Notes: generated by a model from the letters alone, not told the origin. Positions 3,396 to 25,708 are shown, counted from the stretch's first letter. The stretch: 25,708 bases of DNA from Thermoproteota archaeon (GCA_046731995.1 JBKPMB010000294.1:1-25708), one strand, 5' to 3'. Numbers and translations are program-made.

Positions 3396-3490
3396 GTCCA
3401 GAAGACCTATTATTTTATCTTCTTTCTTTCTTTTTATAGAATCCTCATCATCAATTATTCTACTTCCTCCTAACCTATGATCTTTCTCAG

Positions 3491-3687
3491 CTAGACCTTA
3501 TTACTATCTTCATCACTATAAAACTTGAGGGCTAGCCTAAAAAAAGCATCAAATATATCATTATACGATGTAGGTTCTTTCTCTAAAGTACTGTCGTTAT
3601 CCACGGCAGTTTTTTGAGTGCCGTTATCAGCTTGTCAAAGCTGTCTGGATTGATAGCAATTTTTCTTGATTTCTGTTCTAATATCAT
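3491..3687 (-). pseudogene. Frameshifted copy (repeat A1) of the small terminase-large-subunit-like C-terminal fragment found intact at 12567-12764
   Basis: Minus-strand translation gives MILEQKSRKIAINPDSFDKLITALKK, then a frameshift in the T-run at about 3610-3616, then AVDNDSTLEKEPTSYNDIFDAFFRLALKFYSDEDSNKV and a stop. It aligns at the nucleotide level with 12567-12764. Confidence 0.45.
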
Positions 3688-3762
3688 CTTGTGGTGTGTC
3701 CTAGCATGGTTTTATGTTCTCTATTGAAGTTTACACGAACTATTCTTATGCCCTCGCTTATC

Positions 3763-3885
3763 AAAATCAAACTAAGTGGATATTAGTTAGCTGTTGTTTT
3801 AGTTAGCTGTTCCCATAACTTGCTTATCATTGATATACACTAAGAATACATAAGTGACTATCTCCATCTAGTTTGATATTTTAAA
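3763..3885 (+). repeat. Repeat B1: conserved upstream/promoter cassette (contains a 16-nt internal tandem ttagttagctgtt and a TATA-like tattttaaa)
   Basis: Aligns with 12357-12460 (cataacttgcttatcattgatatacacta versus cgtaacttgcttatgattgatatacacta, and so on). Its last 29 nt (actatctccatctagtttgatattttaaa, 3857-3885) recur exactly at 16706-16734. Confidence 0.7.
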
Positions 3886-3938: not shown

Positions 3939-4469
3939 TTGGCAGTGGCACCAGCGCTAGCAGGGGGCCAAGACAAAAGGGACAAATACGACAAAAAAGG
4001 AGATAGCAGCGCTACAGTTACAAAACAAGCAAGCAAGCAAAAGGGAGTCCTAAGTGGATTTGTTATTTTTGATGATCAAGACGCGGATAACTGCATAGTC
4101 GTATTAAACGATGCTAATGCATGCCGAGAACAAGGACAACAAGTAACACCACCAACACCACCACCAGAAGTAGGCTGTCCAGACAATACTCTTTACAATG
4201 TAATACTTAGAGAAAACCTAAACGATGGCACTACTATACCCGAAGGAACGATATTGTGTCTGCCTAAAAAACTTGGAGACCAAACAGCAACTATTTCTAC
4301 TGAGACACCTGTGGATTCTATTACTTCATTTGAAGTAGTAGTAGCAAATCCAAATCTGGACCCATGTCCAGAAAGCCCCATCCCTGGATTCTCTCCTGCA
4401 AAAGTGGACTCTGGAGACCCGGGTAACCCAATAGGTCAACATGGCACAGTCTGTATAAAAAAGCAATAG
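3939..4469 (+). CDS. Small secreted Cys-containing protein of unknown function (start codon problematic)
   Basis: 176-aa ORF from TTG 3939. The in-frame upstream codons 3885-3938 encode TLVLLGVVLVAATLVISA, which continues into LAVAPALAGG. That is a signal-peptide h-region plus an AxA site, but it has no ATG/GTG/TTG. The mature part has a PPTPPP linker and 6 Cys. A T-tract follows the stop. Confidence 0.6.
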   Translation: MAVAPALAGGQDKRDKYDKKGDSSATVTKQASKQKGVLSGFVIFDDQDADNCIVVLNDANACREQGQQVTPPTPPPEVGCPDNTLYNVILRENLNDGTTIPEGTILCLPKKLGDQTATISTETPVDSITSFEVVVANPNLDPCPESPIPGFSPAKVDSGDPGNPIGQHGTVCIKKQ

Positions 4470-6087: not shown

Positions 6088-7134
6088 ATGAACCACACAT
6101 GCTTCGCTTCTACAGTATTTTCAGTTGTAGTTAGCATATTACTTTTTGGTGTTTGGAGCAATGTCTATGTGTATGCACAACAATCATCTTCATCATCTAC
6201 ACCAATGGCATCTCTCCAACCATCACCAGCTGGTAGTAGTATCGCAACGATATCTCCACAACTCAAAGCAAAAATATGCGATCCTAGTAATCCAAGTCTC
6301 AAGGCAGTTAACACAACTGAATCGCTTATATGTGGTATTCCAAAAACAATAAAATCACCTGCATTATCATCACCGGCGCCGTCTACATCCTCATCAGCAG
6401 TTTCATCAACAACGCCGCAACAAACAACAACTACAAAGCCTATTGCGGCTGCTGCTCCAAAACAACAGCAGCAAATTGCAACTACAAATAATAATAATAC
6501 GAAAGCGGTTTCAGGAACAACTGGCGCAAAGGTCGCAACAATATCTCCAGTCGGCAATACCAGCAACAGATCATTATCATCAGCATTATCATCGCCACCA
6601 CCATTCCCTATAGTACCGCAACTAAACACTATAAGTCAACAACAACAGCATCAACAGCCACAAGTACTAACAACAATAAGCAATGGCACGGCTGGACAAA
6701 GCTACACATTTCAAACTTCAAATTCCCCACTACTGGGCTCTGGTAAACTAGTATATCTTGGCTATAATGGTGGTAGTACTGGTACTAGTAGTACTGATAG
6801 TAGCTCGCCAGACAAGAGCACTACAGATACCAAATCAAGTCATGATAGTGGCACTAGTACCTCAAAAGATAAGGAGAGATCCGATAACAACAAATCATCT
6901 GGTCATAAAAATGATGGTAGCAGCTCTCATACCAGCAGCTCTGATAAGAAGTCATCTGGTCATAAAAATGATAGTCACAAGCCATCATCATCATCAAAAA
7001 CAACATCTAAAGCAAAGGATCATACGCATCATGACAACAATGAAAGTAACAAAGCAAAGAAGGAGGGCAGCTCAAAAGGAAATAGTAATCACAAAGGTGG
7101 AGATAGCTTCTTTGATGGCGATCCCTTTTTTTAA
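6088..7134 (+). CDS. Secreted, intrinsically disordered Ser/Thr/Gln/Asn-rich protein with a His/Lys/Ser-rich C-terminal tail (mucin-like)
   Basis: The signal peptide is MNHTCFASTVFSVVVSILLFGVWSNVYVYAQQ. The rest is long S/T/Q/P low complexity. KSSGHKND is repeated (tcatctggtcataaaaatgat appears twice, 57 bp apart, around 6895 and 6952). The protein ends FFDGDPFF. Confidence 0.7.
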   Translation: MNHTCFASTVFSVVVSILLFGVWSNVYVYAQQSSSSSTPMASLQPSPAGSSIATISPQLKAKICDPSNPSLKAVNTTESLICGIPKTIKSPALSSPAPSTSSSAVSSTTPQQTTTTKPIAAAAPKQQQQIATTNNNNTKAVSGTTGAKVATISPVGNTSNRSLSSALSSPPPFPIVPQLNTISQQQQHQQPQVLTTISNGTAGQSYTFQTSNSPLLGSGKLVYLGYNGGSTGTSSTDSSSPDKSTTDTKSSHDSGTSTSKDKERSDNNKSSGHKNDGSSSHTSSSDKKSSGHKNDSHKPSSSSKTTSKAKDHTHHDNNESNKAKKEGSSKGNSNHKGGDSFFDGDPFF

Positions 7135-10712: not shown

Positions 10713-11183
10713 CTAATAGTTTGCTTTTACTTCGATGCCCCCTCCAGCTATTCGGTTCTCGCTCATATTGGCATAAGGATAGTTGTTATATTGGTCATGT
10801 ACGTAACGAGTAGTATCGTCATCGTGTGTTGTTATAGTATCTGTACTATTATAGAGCTTTTCTAGACGTGTAACTTGTTTTTCGTCTTCTCCTTCAACTT
10901 TTGATAACACCCGTTTGTATGTTCCGTCAACTATCAATAGTATTTTTTTAGTTTCAATTGGTTGCGTATATCTGTCATGTGAAAAAACATGAGATTTAGG
11001 AAATATATATTCAAATATCCATAAATAACCTGGGCTTGAAATTATCGTTATATCGTCACCGTTAGCACATTTGTTATTACTGTTACTGTTGTTGCTGCTA
11101 GCATAGCTATTGTATTGTATATCATATCCAACGAATGCTGCAGCCTCAAATTGAGGAAGCATGATATTTGTTGATATCAACAT
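10713..11183 (-). CDS. Hypothetical membrane-anchored/secreted protein (N-terminus probably frameshifted)
   Basis: 156-aa ORF. In-frame codons upstream of the ATG (up to 11228) encode SVIAICVIFGLVATT, which completes a TM helix with MLISTNIML. An ATG at minus 11260 (MTTTTIVCNNNQS...) is in another frame. A poly-N/S insert (SSNNSNSNNK) is present. Confidence 0.5.
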   Translation of the reverse strand: MLISTNIMLPQFEAAAFVGYDIQYNSYASSNNSNSNNKCANGDDITIISSPGYLWIFEYIFPKSHVFSHDRYTQPIETKKILLIVDGTYKRVLSKVEGEDEKQVTRLEKLYNSTDTITTHDDDTTRYVHDQYNNYPYANMSENRIAGGGIEVKANY

Positions 11184-12356: not shown

Positions 12357-12460
12357 AAAACCAAACCTAATTGATGTTAGTTAGCTGATTGCCGTAACTT
12401 GCTTATGATTGATATACACTAGTAATACATCAGGGATTATCTTCACACAGTTTATATGTG
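12357..12460 (+). repeat. Repeat B2: second copy of the upstream/promoter cassette, with no gene attached
   Basis: aaaaccaaacctaattgatgttagttagctgattgccgtaacttgcttatgattgatatacactagtaatacatcagggattatcttcacacagtttatatgtg aligns with 3763-3885, at roughly 80 percent identity by eye. Confidence 0.65.
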
Positions 12461-12566
12461 ATTACTAATCTACTACGTAATTAAAACTTATCAATATCGA
12501 TGGATCTCAACATAAGCAAAGTCATTGTTGCTGTCTCTTCCTTTTCAATAGTCTTTATTGTTTTAT

Positions 12567-12764
12567 TTAATAATCATCTTTTTCTTTGAAATGATAAAAC
12601 TTCAAAGCTAGTCTAAAGGCATCAAATATATCGTTATAGGATGTTGATTCTTTGTCTAGTGCTCCATCATTGTCCACGGCAGTTCGCAATGCTGTTATTA
12701 GCTTGTCAAATTTATCTGGATTGATTGCAATGCGACCACCATCGTTTTCCAATATTGAAAGCAA
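12567..12764 (-). pseudogene. Repeat A2: stand-alone 65-codon fragment resembling the C-terminus of a phage/virus terminase large subunit (RNase-H-fold nuclease tail); tentative
   Basis: The sequence is ILENDGGRIAINPDKFDKLITALRTAVDNDGALDKESTSYNDIFDAFRLALKFY. The ...(D/N)D..DA.R.AL ending is reminiscent of terminase large-subunit C-termini. The ORF opens only 4 codons after an upstream stop and uses TTG, so it looks like the 3' stub of a larger gene. Confidence 0.35.
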
Positions 12765-12816: not shown

Positions 12817-14748
12817 CTATCGCTGACTGGTAGGAATTATCCTATATATCGCTTCCTTCGCTGGACTCTTGTATGGATAACCATGATCCATTTGTATAGA
12901 AAGAACATATAGATATCCATCAGGTCCAACTTGTATATCCGTAATTGGACCGAATCCATAACCAAATAGCATGTTTCCATAACGAAATGTTATATTATGC
13001 ATAAAATCAGGGTTTGATACTAGGTTGTTGTTATTATTATTTGTCCTTGCCGTAATTTGGCTTATACGTATTACATCAAACAAAGTAACGGCTTCCTTAC
13101 CTGGTTGGGAAGACCATCCAGCGTTTAATATTGGACGTATTTTTGCTATGTTTGCAGGTATTATCATTTCACATCTATACTCATGCCATTCCAATGGTCC
13201 ATCGGTACCTGCAGGACATTGTGTCTTAAGCGGGTTCCACGTCTTTGAAGTTTCATCATATCCTTCTATAGCTATATGGGATGCTCTAGCAAACTCATTT
13301 AGTTTCATATGAGTTATTATTTGATATTTTTCATCTGGAATAACATCTATTTCTTTACCAATAATATATGACCATGTATCATTATTAGTCAAGCTTGTAA
13401 GGACCTGAAAACTGGTTTTGATATTTTGCCATCCATTAGTGGAGTTGACTATACATTCAAAATTATATACACAACGCCTAAGGGGATCAGTCCAATTTGC
13501 AGGTAGCTGTGCTTGACCATTATATACTGTCTTGTTTGAGATCGATGAGTCATTTAGGACTAATCCATTTCTTTGATTATTTAGTTTGAAATGGTAGAGA
13601 TTACCATTATTAAAATCTCCTATAAACATATCATTTTCATATTGTTTTCCAAATTTACTGGAGTTCAAGAATTTCAATGCAGTTGGACCGATGGTCTGAT
13701 TCCATATAAGCTCCGGTGCTCGGTATTTTCCTTTTCCTCCAAAGTCTACCAACCCTCTTTCTGGATTTATTGCTACTGGCCCCTCCTGACGAGGAGGAAA
13801 GACACCATTTGGTTTCCACATGCCTTGTACTTGCATCCATCCACTGTTAAACCCGGGTTCAACAAGGTTAATCTCATCTCCAAAATACGGCCCATTTTCT
13901 GTATCCCACAATTTTTTAGTTATAGGGTCAAAGTCAAATCCAAAACTATTGCGTATACCGTATGCATAGTATAGGTTTAGAGGATAATTGTCACCAATAA
14001 TGCCTTTTCCAACTGGTTGACCGTTTTGAGTAATTCTAAGTATTCCGCTTGTTCCATCAGGATCTGTTCCGTTTTGAAAGTTCTGAGCTTTAGTTCTATG
14101 GCGACGCAGATCACCGATCACAAGATAGAGATCATTGTCTGGACCAACCAGCATTCTACCACCATTATGCTGGGGTCCTGGAGTCGCTGGAAGGCTTAGA
14201 AGCGGTTTGGGATTAACTAATTGATTATTTAGTAATTCATATCTATAAAGGCAATTGCATTTTGGTTTTATACCTGCAGCATCATCACCAGTTTTTCCTA
14301 CACCAGATTCTGTAAGGTACAAGAAAACAAATGTAGTTGCAGGTTGAGTGTCATTGGTCTTGCTTTTTATGCTACCGACAGGAACTCCTAGCATACCCCT
14401 TTCTTGTTCTGTTGCTACATTAACATGGAGCAATGGTTTAGAATGTAATGTACCGTTCACAATTCTCTCCACTGTTCCATTATTTTTTTGTAACAGCAAG
14501 ATATCATTTGGACCCAAAAATGCCATAGATGAAGGGAATTTGTCTCCCTTGAATACCGTCTCTACTTTTAAGTTGGGATCAGCGATAACAGGCGGATGAT
14601 CAGTTATCGTTTTACCAGTTACTGGGGATCCCGAAGATGAAGAGGAAGGGGTTTCTTGGGCAAATGTCAAATGAGAAATTTGGACCAACGTAGCAATAAT
14701 AATGCTGACTCCAATCGTTGTCACTATGACCAGATTTCTCTGCAGCAT
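12817..14748 (-). CDS. Secreted glucose/sorbosone-dehydrogenase-like (GSDH, PQQ-type) beta-propeller with a jelly-roll (CBM4_9-like) module inserted before the last blade
   Basis: GSDH signatures are LKVETVFKGDKFPSSMAFLGPNDILLLQKNNGTVERI, HNGGRMLVGPDNDLYLVIGD, SGILRITQNG, YAYGIRNSFGFDFDPITKKLWDTENGPYFGDEINLVEPGFNSGW, and the terminal blade ITDIQVGPDGYLYVLS...AIYRIIP. The signal peptide is MLQRNLVIVTTIGVSIIIATLVQISHLTFAQE, from ATG 14748. The track ORF starts at TTG 14814. Confidence 0.85.
   Translation of the reverse strand: MLQRNLVIVTTIGVSIIIATLVQISHLTFAQETPSSSSSGSPVTGKTITDHPPVIADPNLKVETVFKGDKFPSSMAFLGPNDILLLQKNNGTVERIVNGTLHSKPLLHVNVATEQERGMLGVPVGSIKSKTNDTQPATTFVFLYLTESGVGKTGDDAAGIKPKCNCLYRYELLNNQLVNPKPLLSLPATPGPQHNGGRMLVGPDNDLYLVIGDLRRHRTKAQNFQNGTDPDGTSGILRITQNGQPVGKGIIGDNYPLNLYYAYGIRNSFGFDFDPITKKLWDTENGPYFGDEINLVEPGFNSGWMQVQGMWKPNGVFPPRQEGPVAINPERGLVDFGGKGKYRAPELIWNQTIGPTALKFLNSSKFGKQYENDMFIGDFNNGNLYHFKLNNQRNGLVLNDSSISNKTVYNGQAQLPANWTDPLRRCVYNFECIVNSTNGWQNIKTSFQVLTSLTNNDTWSYIIGKEIDVIPDEKYQIITHMKLNEFARASHIAIEGYDETSKTWNPLKTQCPAGTDGPLEWHEYRCEMIIPANIAKIRPILNAGWSSQPGKEAVTLFDVIRISQITARTNNNNNNLVSNPDFMHNITFRYGNMLFGYGFGPITDIQVGPDGYLYVLSIQMDHGYPYKSPAKEAIYRIIPTSQR
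13055..13510 (-). other. Inserted jelly-roll / carbohydrate-binding-like module (copy in the beta-propeller protein)
   Basis: LPANWTDP...TWSYIIGKEIDVIPDEKYQIITHMKLNEFARASHIAIEGYDETSKTW...LEWHEYRCEMIIPANIAKIRPILNAGWSSQPGKEAVTLFDVIRISQI aligns along its whole length with 23511-23975 on the plus strand. Confidence 0.8.
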
Positions 14749-14938
14749 AATAATATTGGAAACATTAGAGAATCTAAGAGATATATACATGTGTACTTTC
14801 GATACATCTACCAATGGTAGATATCAAAGAAGGACTTGTTTAGTAATTTCAATTAAATTAGAGCGTGTCTCTCCCGCTTTAGTGATTTTATGAAGGAAGG
14901 ATTAGCACCCTCAATGTCATATTTGCTTCTTCTTGTTA

Positions 14939-16555
14939 TCAGGCAAAGACTCTCTTACTTGCTGTCCAATATACTGTAAAACTACCAGGTGATGGTGGAG
15001 TTGTAAAGGTTACATCAAATGAAGATGAATTGATATTAGTAACCCTAGGAATACCACCTGATGTAGTGGATGGATTTACGGTGACAACTGTAGGCGTTAT
15101 ATCCAAGTTGTGATTGATTGTAAATGATGTATTTGACCCGTTACCAGTTAATGAAGCAGCACCTTCATTATTGGTACGATACCCTTCATTATCCCATACT
15201 CTAACATTTGAGTTGGGACCACTGAAGGTGTCTAAAACAAAAGTAGACCGCAAAATCGGATTGCATATTTGATTACCATGAAACATAATGTTAGCACACC
15301 CACCGAATATTCTGAATGCATAGTTGGATGTGTTTGCTTGGCTGTTGTCTTCTTGGTGAAAAAAGTTGCCGTGGACGTTCATGTTGTTGCATCCTTCTAC
15401 GTAACACAAGCCTCTATCACCACCTGTTCCATTACTGGCATTAGAATCTCGTAGTTGGTTGCAGCTCATAATTACCGGACCGCTGACATGTACCAGATGT
15501 ATCAAAGACCACTGACTGTTAGACATTACATTATTTTGGATATTTACCTGCTGAATGCTACCGTTAGCAGGATCGTTGTTAGGGTCTCCGTTTATCCACA
15601 ACCTGCAGTATTTCATAGCATTGTTTGAAAATATGATGTTCCTAAATGGAGTTCGTCTAAAACCACCAGTTGACCAGTTAGTTCCACCAAATAATACTGT
15701 ACCGCCTCTCATGGCATTGTTTGACATCACTATACGGTCGTATACCCCGCCTCTAGGCTCTACCGTGATAAAATCAGCACCGATGTCGGTATCCTGACGC
15801 ACAAACACATTTCCAGTTACGACGTAATTTTCGATACCACCCGATGTAAGACTGCTACCAAAAATGCTGCCGCCAATGCCTGCGGTGCGCTTATCAAAGA
15901 AGTTGTTTGTGACATATGCATGTTCTGTTGATCCGATTGCGACCTGATCTTGTAAACTCGTTTTATCAAACCAGCAACTATCAATCCATATTCCAAGCGT
16001 TTGGAAAGTATGACAGCCCACACCGTTATTGCCGGCGTTCATAAAATGGACTCTTTGTACCCAGTTTCTTGTAGGTGAACCATTATACAATTGACCGCCA
16101 GACAAACCTTGACCGTCAATAGTAAAGTCAGATGCGCTGCCATGTGTCCACCATCGCAACATAGTAAATGGCCTTGCCGCAGGATCGTGCTTTATCACTA
16201 CAGAATTCATAGACTCGCCCCTCAAAGTAATGAAAGCATCAGGGTATGTTTGCGAGCCAATCGCTCTTTCCGCGTTTAGTGTGTATGTTCCAGCCTTTAG
16301 ATAAACAAGCCCGCCTGCTTGTTGTACTGCATTGATTACTGAACCAAATAGCGATGTAGTTTCAGCAGATGTAGCTGGAGCTGATGCAGTTGAGCAGTAA
16401 AGTGGGCCTGTTATTCCGTTTACTGCATTCACTCTGCCACTATCGTCTATGTAAATTGTATAGGTTGGTACTTTGATAGAATTTGTGTCGACGCTACCAC
16501 GGCTACCAGTACCAAGCTCGTCAACATAATCATCAATGTCAGTTTTTGGCGGCAT
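14939..16555 (-). CDS. Right-handed parallel beta-helix protein (pectate-lyase-3 / tailspike-like N-terminal domain, PbH1 repeats, C-terminal beta-sandwich); no signal peptide
   Basis: VINAVQQAGGLVYLKAGTYTL is the pectate_lyase_3-type opening. Repeated NN-turn motifs are present: TNNFFDK, TGNVFVRQ, SNNAMRGG, SNNAMKYC, IQNNVMSNS, HGNFFHQ, HGNQICN. The C-terminus is SLTGNGSNTSFTINHNLDITPTVVTVNPSTTSGG...FDVTFTTPPSPGSFTVYW. The N-terminus MPPKTDIDDYVDELGTGS is hydrophilic. Confidence 0.85.
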   Translation of the reverse strand: MPPKTDIDDYVDELGTGSRGSVDTNSIKVPTYTIYIDDSGRVNAVNGITGPLYCSTASAPATSAETTSLFGSVINAVQQAGGLVYLKAGTYTLNAERAIGSQTYPDAFITLRGESMNSVVIKHDPAARPFTMLRWWTHGSASDFTIDGQGLSGGQLYNGSPTRNWVQRVHFMNAGNNGVGCHTFQTLGIWIDSCWFDKTSLQDQVAIGSTEHAYVTNNFFDKRTAGIGGSIFGSSLTSGGIENYVVTGNVFVRQDTDIGADFITVEPRGGVYDRIVMSNNAMRGGTVLFGGTNWSTGGFRRTPFRNIIFSNNAMKYCRLWINGDPNNDPANGSIQQVNIQNNVMSNSQWSLIHLVHVSGPVIMSCNQLRDSNASNGTGGDRGLCYVEGCNNMNVHGNFFHQEDNSQANTSNYAFRIFGGCANIMFHGNQICNPILRSTFVLDTFSGPNSNVRVWDNEGYRTNNEGAASLTGNGSNTSFTINHNLDITPTVVTVNPSTTSGGIPRVTNINSSSFDVTFTTPPSPGSFTVYWTASKRVFA

Positions 16556-16705: not shown

Positions 16706-16836
16706 ACTATCTCCATCTAGTTTGATATTTTAAAGACGTATACTAAAGTGGAGATGATAGTACTGGTGGACAAGACGGCTCCAATTGTATTGCTGTAGTC
16801 AATGATGCTAATGCATGCCGAGAACAAGGAGCATAA
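16706..16836 (+). pseudogene. Truncated paralog of the 3939-4469 gene: promoter cassette (B3) plus an internally deleted coding stub
   Basis: 16706-16734 is identical to 3857-3885 (29 nt). 16750-16836 encodes GDDSTGGQDGSNCIAVVNDANACREQGA and a stop, versus ...DDQDADNCIVVLNDANACREQGQQ in the full gene. A 27-nt identical run gatgctaatgcatgccgagaacaagga occurs at 16804-16830 and 4110-4136. Confidence 0.6.
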
Positions 16837-22441: not shown

Positions 22442-25400
22442 ATGAACTCCTATTTGGTGAATATAAAGAGATACGATTATTTAATTGCCTCAATAGGCTA
22501 TTTCCTAATAGCATTATTCATTTTAAATAGGATTTTATTTTTCTCTCCTGGTACAATTGGATTTTTTCATGACTGGCCAATAGGTCCTTATCCTGAAATG
22601 AACCGATCCTATGCAAATGGTGGCCTCTATGTTTGGAATTCCCAGGTAGGAAACATACTTTTCCCTACTGACTGGATATTTCGTCTAAGTCTTCTTCCAT
22701 TTTCGTTTCTGAATGGAGAAATTCTTACTAAAGGGATATTACTTTTGGTCATAACTCTAAGTGGGTTTGGTGCTTTTTACCTTGGAAAGCAGCTTAAGCT
22801 AAGTCCGTTTTCTTCATTTGCAGCCGGAGTTTTATTTATTTTCTCATCGATAGTATTTACAAGAATCGTAGCTGGGCATATTTATTATCTTATCTCATAT
22901 TTTCTGAGTCCATTTATAGTTGCTTTCTTTCTGAAAGGCAGAGAAGAGGTTAAGAAAAATAGACAACGGGATAAAAAGGAAGTAAATTATAAAAACTTCA
23001 AGTACTTTGTAATTGCGGGTATTTTAACATCCTTTGCAGCTATTCAGCTCCAATTTTTAGTAATGATATTTCTTGTTTTATTAGTCTTTACTGTTCTTGA
23101 CTTTGGAAGAATTAAAAAATCTGCTATAGGTCTGATAATAGTTTTTTCTATCGCATCCTTAGTTAATTTGTCTCCTATAATACCTAGCGACGCCTTATCA
23201 ACCAAGTCTTCTTTATCGCATTTTAATCCCACTACTCTTTTATCATTCGACGAGGTGACTCATGCGTCTGATTTAACAAAAAGTTTAAGATTATTAGGAT
23301 ACGAGCTTCATCCATATAGCTATACAGAGATAGGTACTTCAGATGATCATTTAATTGAGTATGATATTAAAAGAATAATGGAAAATAAACCAAATCTGGT
23401 AGCAAATCCTAATTTTGTATTAGTAGGTGGTAGTGGTAGTAGTAATAATAGTAGTAGTAACACTAGCAATAGTAGTAATAGTAATAACAATACTAGTCAA
23501 TCAAAGCTGCCTATAAATTGGACTGATCCCTCTGGAAATTGTAATCACATTTTTAAGTGTATAGTTTTTCAATTTAAAAAAACTACTGCTGGATTGCAAA
23601 ATAGTACAAATAGCTTTCAAATCTCTACAAATAAAACATCTCCTAATCAAAAAACTTGGTCATGGATTTATGGTAAAGAAATAAACGCTAATCCTGGAGA
23701 ACAATATGGAGTCATAACTCATATGAAATTAAACGAGTTTGCTATACGATCTCATATAGGCATAGCAGGATATAATGATACTTCAAAGGTGTGGATGGAA
23801 ATCATACAATGTCCTTCAGGTGGTAATGTGCAGCCAGAATGGCATGAGTACAGCTGTGCGATAACAATACCAAATGGCATTACCAAAATAAGACCAATAT
23901 TAAATGCTGGATGGTCTTCTCAGCCAGGTAAGGAAGCTATCACTTTGTTTGGTGCTATGTGGATAAGTAAGATAGACTATGCAAGTGGTATCATCCCATC
24001 ATGGATATTTTCTTTAGATTTTTTGATTCCTATAACTGGATTCTCAACTCTCATTTTTAGAAAAGACAAGTATACGCTTTCGTTTGCTATGATATCTTTG
24101 ATTGGATTATTCCTTTTGAAAGGACCTAATCCCCCGTTACAGAATATTTTTAACTTTATTTTTATTCACGGTTTTTATATTTTTAGAGAAGTTTGGCACG
24201 TCGCTTTCTTGTATGGATTTGGTATATCATTTTTAATCGTATTTTTTCTGGAGAAAATAATAACAATAACGTCTTCATTTTCTAAGCTTGGGAGTTATTC
24301 AAATATCTATAAGCATCAGAGGCATCAACATCATCATAATAATTTTTTTCATAAATTAGCATCCTCATCATTATTTTTCTTCTACTACGTAAATGATAAA
24401 CTCAAAAATTATTACAAAATTATTATATCTTCCTTTTTAATTTCTCTTATAGTAATTTCTAATGGATATCCTTTATTGCTAGGAAATTTTGGAGGATATC
24501 TGCAGACCTATGATTTTACAAAAGATTATCATACATTATATAACAATCTTCTTACAAATAGTACTTTTAATACCTTAATGCTTCCTTCGCTTGGTCCAAT
24601 TCAATATGATGGTTTAAAGTTATCAGGCCTAGATCCTTTGAGTACCTATTCTTCTAGCAACATATTCTATCAGGATTATGATGGTGTATCCTATCCACTA
24701 TTGGGTACAATTACTTGGTTACATACCGTTATGCAGGAGAACAAGACTAGCAATCTAGGAAAGTTTCTAAGTGGTTTTGGAATAAAATATGTAATTTTAA
24801 GAAAGGATTTTGTATCCAATTATCCACTTTTTACCACATTAGGAAATTACGGTCCATTTCTAAAAAGGTGGTATGCATCTCTTGAACCATTTTTGGATGC
24901 TCAAAATGATCTAACCGTGTTGTCGAATACACCCCATTATAAAATATACGAGAATAGCAATAATGCAAAAAAATTTTTTATCCCTTTAATAGCTACAAAA
25001 GGAATATATGATTATCGAAGTCTGCTTTATATCTCTAATTTTACTTCACTTTCTAACATAGCAGTATACCCATCAGATTATGGCGACAAGGCTTACACGA
25101 AATTTGATAATTCAAGGGATGAAAAATCCACCTATGATTTTGAAGATTTAGGAAAGTATGCCACATCGTACACTGCAGCTAAAGGATGGACAACCAATAG
25201 AGATTGGTTTGGATATGATTATTTATTGGCGTCCCGAGTTCACACAGGTGCATTTAGTACTGTACGCAATTCTACATTTTCATTTGATTTTCCTACTCCG
25301 CATAAATATGAAAATAAACCTATTGAAATGTGGATGAGGGTTTTGACTTGGCCCAATGGAAAGACTGTAAGCATCAGTATTAATGGAAAACAATCTCGGT

Positions 25401-25708
25401 ATTCATTATTCTCTTTATATCCCAATTTTTCTTTCATCAAGATTTTTGATGGAAGGTCCACTGATGGATTATATCATTTATCAATTACAAATATCGTAGG
25501 AAGTAATTATATCGAAGGCATTTATATGAAGGAAAAAAGTCATAGCGGAGATCGCAAAGATATAAATAACATTTTCTTGATTGACACACAGAACAAACCA
25601 AATCTGGTAGCAAATCCTAATTTTGTATTAGTAGGTGGTAGTGGTAGTAGTAATAATAGTAGTAGTAACACTAGCAATAGTAGTAATAGTAATAACAATA
25701 CTAGTCAA
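22442..25708 (+). CDS. Partial (3'-open) gene for a large polytopic membrane protein of at least 1089 aa. It looks like a GT-C-type glycosyltransferase (AftD/DUF3367-like architecture) carrying the jelly-roll module in an external loop. It is not in the supplied ORF track.
   Basis: I translated every codon from ATG 22442 to 25708 by hand and found no stop. TAG at 22436-22438 closes the frame upstream. Hydrophobic blocks lie at about 22442-23200 and 24000-24480. Soluble parts contain FHDWPIGPYPE, GNFGGYLQTYDF, MLPSLGPIQYDG, GIKYVILRKDF and HYKIYEN. The GT-C assignment is an inference from architecture. Confidence 0.85.
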   Translation, partial: MNSYLVNIKRYDYLIASIGYFLIALFILNRILFFSPGTIGFFHDWPIGPYPEMNRSYANGGLYVWNSQVGNILFPTDWIFRLSLLPFSFLNGEILTKGILLLVITLSGFGAFYLGKQLKLSPFSSFAAGVLFIFSSIVFTRIVAGHIYYLISYFLSPFIVAFFLKGREEVKKNRQRDKKEVNYKNFKYFVIAGILTSFAAIQLQFLVMIFLVLLVFTVLDFGRIKKSAIGLIIVFSIASLVNLSPIIPSDALSTKSSLSHFNPTTLLSFDEVTHASDLTKSLRLLGYELHPYSYTEIGTSDDHLIEYDIKRIMENKPNLVANPNFVLVGGSGSSNNSSSNTSNSSNSNNNTSQSKLPINWTDPSGNCNHIFKCIVFQFKKTTAGLQNSTNSFQISTNKTSPNQKTWSWIYGKEINANPGEQYGVITHMKLNEFAIRSHIGIAGYNDTSKVWMEIIQCPSGGNVQPEWHEYSCAITIPNGITKIRPILNAGWSSQPGKEAITLFGAMWISKIDYASGIIPSWIFSLDFLIPITGFSTLIFRKDKYTLSFAMISLIGLFLLKGPNPPLQNIFNFIFIHGFYIFREVWHVAFLYGFGISFLIVFFLEKIITITSSFSKLGSYSNIYKHQRHQHHHNNFFHKLASSSLFFFYYVNDKLKNYYKIIISSFLISLIVISNGYPLLLGNFGGYLQTYDFTKDYHTLYNNLLTNSTFNTLMLPSLGPIQYDGLKLSGLDPLSTYSSSNIFYQDYDGVSYPLLGTITWLHTVMQENKTSNLGKFLSGFGIKYVILRKDFVSNYPLFTTLGNYGPFLKRWYASLEPFLDAQNDLTVLSNTPHYKIYENSNNAKKFFIPLIATKGIYDYRSLLYISNFTSLSNIAVYPSDYGDKAYTKFDNSRDEKSTYDFEDLGKYATSYTAAKGWTTNRDWFGYDYLLASRVHTGAFSTVRNSTFSFDFPTPHKYENKPIEMWMRVLTWPNGKTVSISINGKQSRYSLFSLYPNFSFIKIFDGRSTDGLYHLSITNIVGSNYIEGIYMKEKSHSGDRKDINNIFLIDTQNKPNLVANPNFVLVGGSGSSNNSSSNTSNSSNSNNNTSQ
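23387..23500 (+). repeat. 114-bp perfect direct repeat, copy 1 (encodes KPNLVANPNFVLVGGSGSSNNSSSNTSNSSNSNNNTSQ)
   Basis: A character-by-character comparison with 25595-25708 shows 114/114 identity, in the same reading frame of the same ORF. Confidence 0.95.
23511..23975 (+). other. Jelly-roll / carbohydrate-binding-like module (copy in the giant membrane protein)
   Basis: LPINWTDP...TWSWIYGKEINANPGEQYGVITHMKLNEFAIRSHIGIAGYNDTSKVW...PEWHEYSCAITIPNGITKIRPILNAGWSSQPGKEAITLFGAMWISKI. The pattern (W...PG..Y....vK...........W.ey...i.iP.....ir..L) fits CBM4_9/galactose-binding-like domains. Confidence 0.8.
25595..25708 (+). repeat. 114-bp perfect direct repeat, copy 2; the window ends at its last base
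   Basis: Identical to 23387-23500. Confidence 0.95.

Follow-up and report, generated by a model that had tools for sequence, protein, structure and literature searches.

The window, by which we mean the whole 25,708-nucleotide stretch that was analysed, is an entire contig of an 81.5%-complete metagenome-assembled genome (MAG) from a Thermoproteota archaeon, an ammonia oxidiser of soil. Its multicopper oxidase has relatives of 63–88% identity, nearly all of them in Nitrososphaeraceae or Nitrososphaerales MAGs. A module of about 155 residues occurs in it twice, once on the minus strand within a sugar dehydrogenase-type gene (copy A, host gene 1) and once on the plus strand within a gene for a polytopic membrane protein (copy B, host gene 2), and the neighbourhood holds three GT2 genes, a GT4 gene, a UDP-GlcNAc 2-epimerase and a methyltransferase. 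Beside the glycan genes, dispersed direct repeats of 74–100% identity lie in intergenic DNA at 3423–3885, 12357–12731 and 16706–16830, with an exact 29-mer in common between 3857–3885 and 16706–16734. Frames of 156–538 residues at 14939–16555 (−), 6088–7134 (+), 3939–4469 (+) and 10713–11183 (−) have no Pfam match at E ≤ 0.01, and the two largest have no NCBIfam match either. The features on which the analysis turns are the following.

12817–14814, minus strand: host gene 1, encoding a six-bladed propeller of the glucose/sorbosone dehydrogenase type, secreted or anchored (PF07995 GSDH, TIGR03606)
13003–13026, minus strand: NLVSNPDF motif past copy A, behind an Asn-rich linker (class A arrangement; left undocked by AF2)
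13054–13515, minus strand: module copy A, residues 434–587 of the 665-residue frame (BLASTP and HMM boundaries; AF2 beta-sandwich; Foldseek CBM4/16/22/70)
13078–13134, minus strand: first conserved block in copy A, translating to PILNAGWSSQPGKEAVTLF
22442–25708, plus strand: host gene 2, for a polytopic membrane protein exceeding 1089 residues, its frame still open where the contig stops (nine or more hydrophobic segments; orthologues P0021, P0031, P0049, P0053 and P0010)
23384–23497, plus strand: copy B leader, in which a Ser/Asn-rich linker comes after an NLVANPNF motif (from translation; class B arrangement; pLDDT ~30, predicted disordered)
23498–23974, plus strand: module copy B, residues 353–511 of the open frame (BLASTP and HMM boundaries; AF2; Foldseek CBM4-2/CBM16/CBM22, E ~1e-6)
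23714–23743, plus strand: second conserved block in copy B, ITHMKLNEFA, with its partner in copy A at 13288–13317 (−); H114, M115 and L117 invariant
23894–23950, plus strand: first conserved block in copy B, translating to PILNAGWSSQPGKEAITLF, on strands E167–176 and E186–197 of the AF2 model
25595–25708, plus strand: perfect 114-nucleotide repeat of 23387–23500 (by sequence comparison), in frame and the probable leader of another module carried by host gene 2

Host gene 1 is open for 665 residues from a TTG codon; the called product, P0003, has 643, and ATG 14748, which yields that length, is the likely start. A single hydrophobic segment lies near the N terminus (residues 29–47). The GSDH profile matches residues 93–416 at 123.3 bits (cut-off 25; E = 1.8e-35) over profile positions 3–293 of 332, so that the match ends just upstream of copy A, and the last blade (GFGPITDIQVGPDGYLYV) follows downstream; copy A is therefore nested in the propeller. 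The nearest GSDH paralogues in relatives lack the module. GSDH-type genes are highly expanded in the family to which the window genome belongs, with 8–20 matches in most genomes searched (range 2–20) and 10 in the window genome itself. A fungal propeller enzyme, the pyranose dehydrogenase CcPDH of Coprinopsis cinerea, bears a CBM1 that is small and terminal, whereas host gene 1 has a CBM4/9-like sandwich inside the propeller, ahead of the last blade. CcPDH is described as an AA12 PQQ-dependent enzyme that, like host gene 1, joins a GSDH-like six-bladed PQQ propeller to a carbohydrate-binding module (PMC4332668).

Host gene 2 runs for 1089 residues without a stop up to the window end. Copy B sits in a 272-residue loop with hydrophobic segments at 230–248 and 521–539 on either side. 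We found no Pfam match in this gene, and its two NCBIfam matches are weak and far under their cut-offs: MmpA scores 22.5 bits where 210 are required (E = 3.7e-5), and archaeal STT3 scores 16.3 bits where 450 are required (E = 0.0024). The DUF6311 label carried by the orthologue P0021 was not reproduced on search, and a sequence search of the PDB with the orthologue P0049 returned no match. From these sequence matches, host gene 2 appears weakly GT-C-like. It may resemble the mycobacterial Emb arabinosyltransferases, which are GT-C enzymes (7BVF, a Foldseek match), in combining a polytopic membrane glycosyltransferase architecture with CBM-like sandwiches in extracytoplasmic regions; the likeness is one of architecture, the GT-C assignment of host gene 2 resting on the weak NCBIfam matches.

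The contig ends inside the repeated leader (NLVANPNF and the Ser/Asn linker) at 25595–25708. Orthologues of host gene 2 carry the module at two fixed sites, P0010 at both, P0049 at the second only and P0031 at the first only; module presence thus varies among them, so there has been gain or loss of the module in the history of this membrane-protein family. Because the leader is repeated and orthologues have modules at that site, host gene 2 very probably runs on into another module, possibly one that arose from the first by a recent duplication within the gene. The 114-nucleotide repeat is probably what broke the assembly. A tblastn search of the genome at E ≤ 10 gave just the two copies and the contig-end leader, no other contig of the genome continues the window, and a metagenome scan with the C-terminal 209 residues of host gene 2 found no continuation of that gene.

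Copy A and copy B were each modelled with AF2 from an alignment of 23 sequences, and both models are all-beta sandwiches of 9–10 strands. Scored by 10-residue blocks, core pLDDT is mostly ~76–97, except in two or three N-terminal blocks, which reach as low as 53–64; in copy B the core lies at ~76–97 and two blocks fall to ~62. Searched against the PDB with Foldseek, the copies find CBM4-2, CBM16, CBM22, the CBM4 of CelK, CBM61, a hyaluronan-binding module and glycan-binding phage tailspike domains as their top matches, at a probability of 1.00, E ~1e-6 and TM(target) of 0.5–0.66. The first conserved block maps to most of the penultimate strand, to the nine residues of the loop GWSSQPGKE and to the opening half of the last strand, and includes the family-invariant residues L174, A176, G177, S179, T188 and F190; THMKLN, from the second block, lies at the end of a central strand.

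At the sequence level, the Pfam CBM_4_9 profile matches copy A at 14.2 bits (E = 0.059), which is sub-threshold, and does not match copy B. Relatives score 17.8–21 bits (E = 0.0004–0.005), and sub-threshold matches spanning nearly the full profile occur in 12 of the 23 aligned members at E ≤ 0.1, the best at E = 3e-5; among the module members seen, no sequence match reaches the PF02018 gathering score of 25.9 bits. A PF02018 label had been precomputed for one relative, P0004. Sequence searches of the PDB with a single module and with a profile returned nothing meaningful. On its modelled structure, we identify the module as a divergent CBM4/9/16/22-type beta-jelly-roll domain of ~155 residues. 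It has the same ~150-residue jelly-roll as the characterized domains of this type (PF02018; Rhodothermus marinus CBM4-2, 2Y64; CBM16, 2ZEX; CBM22, 4XUP), which are likewise appended to carbohydrate-active enzymes, but its sequence identity to them is just 10–16%, it carries four invariant cysteines as well as the motifs THMKLN and NAGWSS, and its hosts in the window are an archaeal PQQ dehydrogenase and a membrane glycosyltransferase-like protein rather than glycoside hydrolases. The cysteines probably form two disulfides and, together with three or four N-x-S/T sequons per copy and the signal-anchor of the dehydrogenase, suggest an extracytoplasmic location. A crude helix count would place the module loop of host gene 2 on the cytoplasmic side, unless one helix was missed.

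An NLVxNPxF motif accompanies the module, past it in what we call class A proteins and ahead of it in class B proteins. It stands ~15 residues upstream or 10–29 residues downstream, nearly always one or the other, and in the window it occupies 13003–13026 (−) and 23393–23416 (+). In P0010 it aligns with the opening strand of the CBM_4_9 profile from Pfam. AF2 leaves this strand undocked in both arrangements, with a pLDDT of ~30. From the placement of the motif in the sequence, some members could be circular permutants of the CBM4/9 fold.

An exhaustive search delimits the module family at 245 clusters at E ≤ 1e-3, 36 of them at E ≤ 1e-30, and a word-indexed search yielded 54 proteins with the module. 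Among these 54, it is placed N-terminal to GSDH or nested in it, and it also occurs in PMT-type membrane glycosyltransferases, alginate-lyase proteins, a spermine-synthase-like protein and the orthologues of host gene 2; the carbohydrate-active domains beside it are GSDH (PF07995), PMT/PMT_2/GT22 and alginate lyase (PF05426). A tree of the modules is poorly resolved (25 of its 48 inner branches are under 80) with host types intermixed, and we therefore claim no order of events. A single-sequence query found the module in none of 60 relatives, and a profile search found it in 3 of the 111 genomes of the family and in none of the 289 genomes of the order's other families; in those three genomes, divergent versions lie in GSDH genes, N-terminal or nested. 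When 185,579 species genomes were scanned by pattern, no module was confirmed, and a literature search found no description of it. The family is divergent, lineage-restricted, mostly metagenomic and linked to the Nitrososphaeraceae.

A CBM-like fold need not bind sugar, and the module might instead be a protein–protein, envelope-anchoring or metal-binding domain, or a structural spacer of extracytoplasmic proteins. The galactose-binding-like sandwich serves many ligands, and Foldseek also matches MAM and toxin domains; the invariant His114, Met115 and His125 and the four cysteines do not correspond to the aromatic platform typical of CBM4/22; identity is unusually high, at ~55%, across unrelated hosts; and the CBM_4_9 matches stay sub-threshold. 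We nonetheless judge such a role unlikely, as the best structural neighbours are CBMs with ligand bound, those host domains that can be identified (GSDH, PMT-type glycosyltransferases and alginate lyase) have sugars or glycans as their substrates, and the genes in the neighbourhood form a glycan-synthesis cluster.

How the two copies came to resemble one another is a separate matter. BLASTP aligns the two frames over a single shared stretch of ~155–160 residues (91 of 160 identities, 57%; E = 2e-51), a likeness that by sequence comparison is far above chance. Taken over all ~155 residues of the module, protein identity between the copies is 59% and DNA identity 72%, and in DNA the pair is visible as inverted repeats of 72–78%. 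An earlier note on this DNA had compared two short pairs of segments and proposed that the copies differ almost only at synonymous sites. Recomputed from both strands, 23894–23950 (+) and the reverse complement of 13078–13134 do differ at 6 of 57 nucleotides and encode the peptides that it gave, with PILNAGWSSQPGKEA(I/V)TLF in both copies; a pathway count assigns five of the differences as synonymous and one as nonsynonymous, the ATC/GTT codon contributing one of each. The second pair, 23714–23743 (+), has two mismatches, both silent as described, against 13288–13317 (−), one base away from the 13287–13316 that had been given. The proposal is sound for these two blocks only: across the whole module, a codon-aware alignment of 153 codons has 62 that encode different residues, with 84.8 nonsynonymous and 44.2 synonymous differences and identities of 75%, 76% and 65% at codon positions 1, 2 and 3. 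The two pairs are the two most conserved stretches of a module under moderate, not extreme, constraint.

By the NG86 method, the copies differ at dN = 0.28 and dS = 0.69–0.73, a dN/dS of 0.385 with a bootstrap 95% interval of 0.24–0.60; the other estimators give 0.40 (LWL85), 0.36 (YN00) and 0.26 (ML), so that the ratio over the full codon alignment is not near 1, in keeping with the earlier expectation of constraint. Module dS is 0.7–1.1 across methods, and a pairwise dS near 1 is near saturation in this 36% G+C genome. Within the 19-codon first block, dN/dS is 0.04 and dS is 0.51–0.56, and dS in the remaining module is 0.67–1.30 depending on the method. These values agree with the earlier view that the divergence is old and not that of a recent neutral duplication, and the longest identical run between the copies, 16 nucleotides, is close to the 'about 14' reported before, with no long identical tracts.

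Since a comparison of paralogues averages over both lineages, we used orthologue DNA to test each copy. Against the nested modules of P0006, P0007 and P0008, copy A (P0001) has a dN/dS of 0.19–0.34, as compared with 0.19–0.23 in the rest of the gene; against P0031, copy B (P0002) has a dN/dS of 0.23–0.37, as compared with 0.19–0.25. Both copies are thus under purifying selection, as the note had held. Module dN/dS is at most 0.41 (NG86) or 0.31 (ML) in all 21 pairwise comparisons of the seven genes with DNA. The rate at which the module evolves equals or exceeds that of the remainder of its host gene, and its overall constraint, at a dN/dS of 0.3–0.4, is only moderate and akin to that of the rest of the host genes. 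Between P0001 and P0007 (L004), the module differs at dN 0.21 and dS 0.77, and the rest of the gene at dN 0.087 and dS 0.44. The module is here about twice as diverged as the remaining gene; between P0006 and P0007 it is less diverged than the rest. The uneven divergence among P0001, P0006 and P0007 hints at module exchange or unequal rates.

Both copies keep all invariant residues of the family, including the four cysteines. Family-wide conservation is 0.74 in the first block and 0.57 elsewhere, and 0.71 in columns where the two copies agree as against 0.48 where they differ. The two blocks are the most conserved motifs across the ~245 family clusters, which fits the suggestion that the shared peptide is constrained as a functional part.

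Gene conversion within this genome, rather than selection on the peptide, could in principle have kept the conserved blocks alike. Copying has occurred recently close by, where 25595–25708 is identical over 114 nucleotides to the copy B leader, host types are intermixed in the module tree, and the NG86 dS of the window pair, 0.69, is slightly below the 0.78–1.16 of cross-host pairs. Codon usage shared within one 36% G+C genome would, however, explain this slightly lower dS, and the dN of the window pair, 0.28, matches that of cross-genome, cross-host pairs (0.26–0.32). Of the informative protein sites, 20 unite copy A with its own orthologues, 7 unite copy A with copy B and 7 unite copy B with the orthologues of copy A; by these patterns, the window copies have no excess affinity over background, and the symmetry of 7 against 7 means that there is no conversion signal. 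The seven sites at which copy A equals copy B are mostly derived changes on the lineage of P0006–P0008. The same blocks are, moreover, conserved in ~100 distinct family members from other samples. Given these site patterns, the dN plateau, identical runs no longer than 16 nucleotides and the synonymous divergence within the first block itself, we reject conversion between the copies as very improbable. That one copy is a recent neutral or decaying duplicate, conserved-looking in the two short stretches only, is scarcely credible, as both frames are open through the module and the entire host gene, dS of ~0.7–1.1 is not that of a recent duplication, both copies hold every invariant residue, and the full-length codon alignment, with dN/dS well below 1 and each copy constrained against its orthologues, rules it out. 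The observations support an old duplication in which both copies are constrained and conversion has left no sign.

Our preferred reading, to which we assign a probability of roughly 80%, is that a CBM-like module was duplicated long ago and is kept in two hosts by ordinary purifying selection, for what we infer to be a glycan-binding role. Copies A and B stem from an old duplication or a domain shuffle, their dS of ~0.7–1.1 and dN of ~0.28 being on the scale of those between modules of different genomes and hosts. One copy is nested in a secreted PQQ-type sugar-dehydrogenase propeller and the other lies in a big loop of a weakly GT-C-like membrane protein. Ordinary purifying selection has retained each copy since then, acting most strongly on THMKLN and KIRPxLNAGWSSQxGKxAVTxF, which the models predict to be core strands plus a connecting loop of the sandwich. 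The module may bind a glycan, perhaps one of the cell's own envelope or EPS or a soil polysaccharide, and such binding would keep the attached enzyme at its substrate.

A more specific proposal, which we offer tentatively and consider unlikely, is that the family, some of its members being circular permutants, serves as a lineage-specific 'address label' for one conserved self-ligand such as the organism's own S-layer glycan or EPS. It is prompted by the uniformity of the sequence, with ~55% identity over at least five unrelated host architectures. If true, one module would tether diverse envelope enzymes to the cell surface.

On the preferred reading of an old, constrained duplication, both copies are working parts and not debris, and the scale of the earlier claim is corrected, with constraint moderate across the module and strong on two core motifs. 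The analysis delimits a divergent CBM-like family that current Pfam models barely detect, and a dedicated profile would name several hundred regions now annotated as 'hypothetical'. The envelope and EPS biology of soil ammonia-oxidising archaea is poorly known, and it is their sugar dehydrogenases, glycosyltransferase-like membrane proteins and a polysaccharide lyase that this family decorates.
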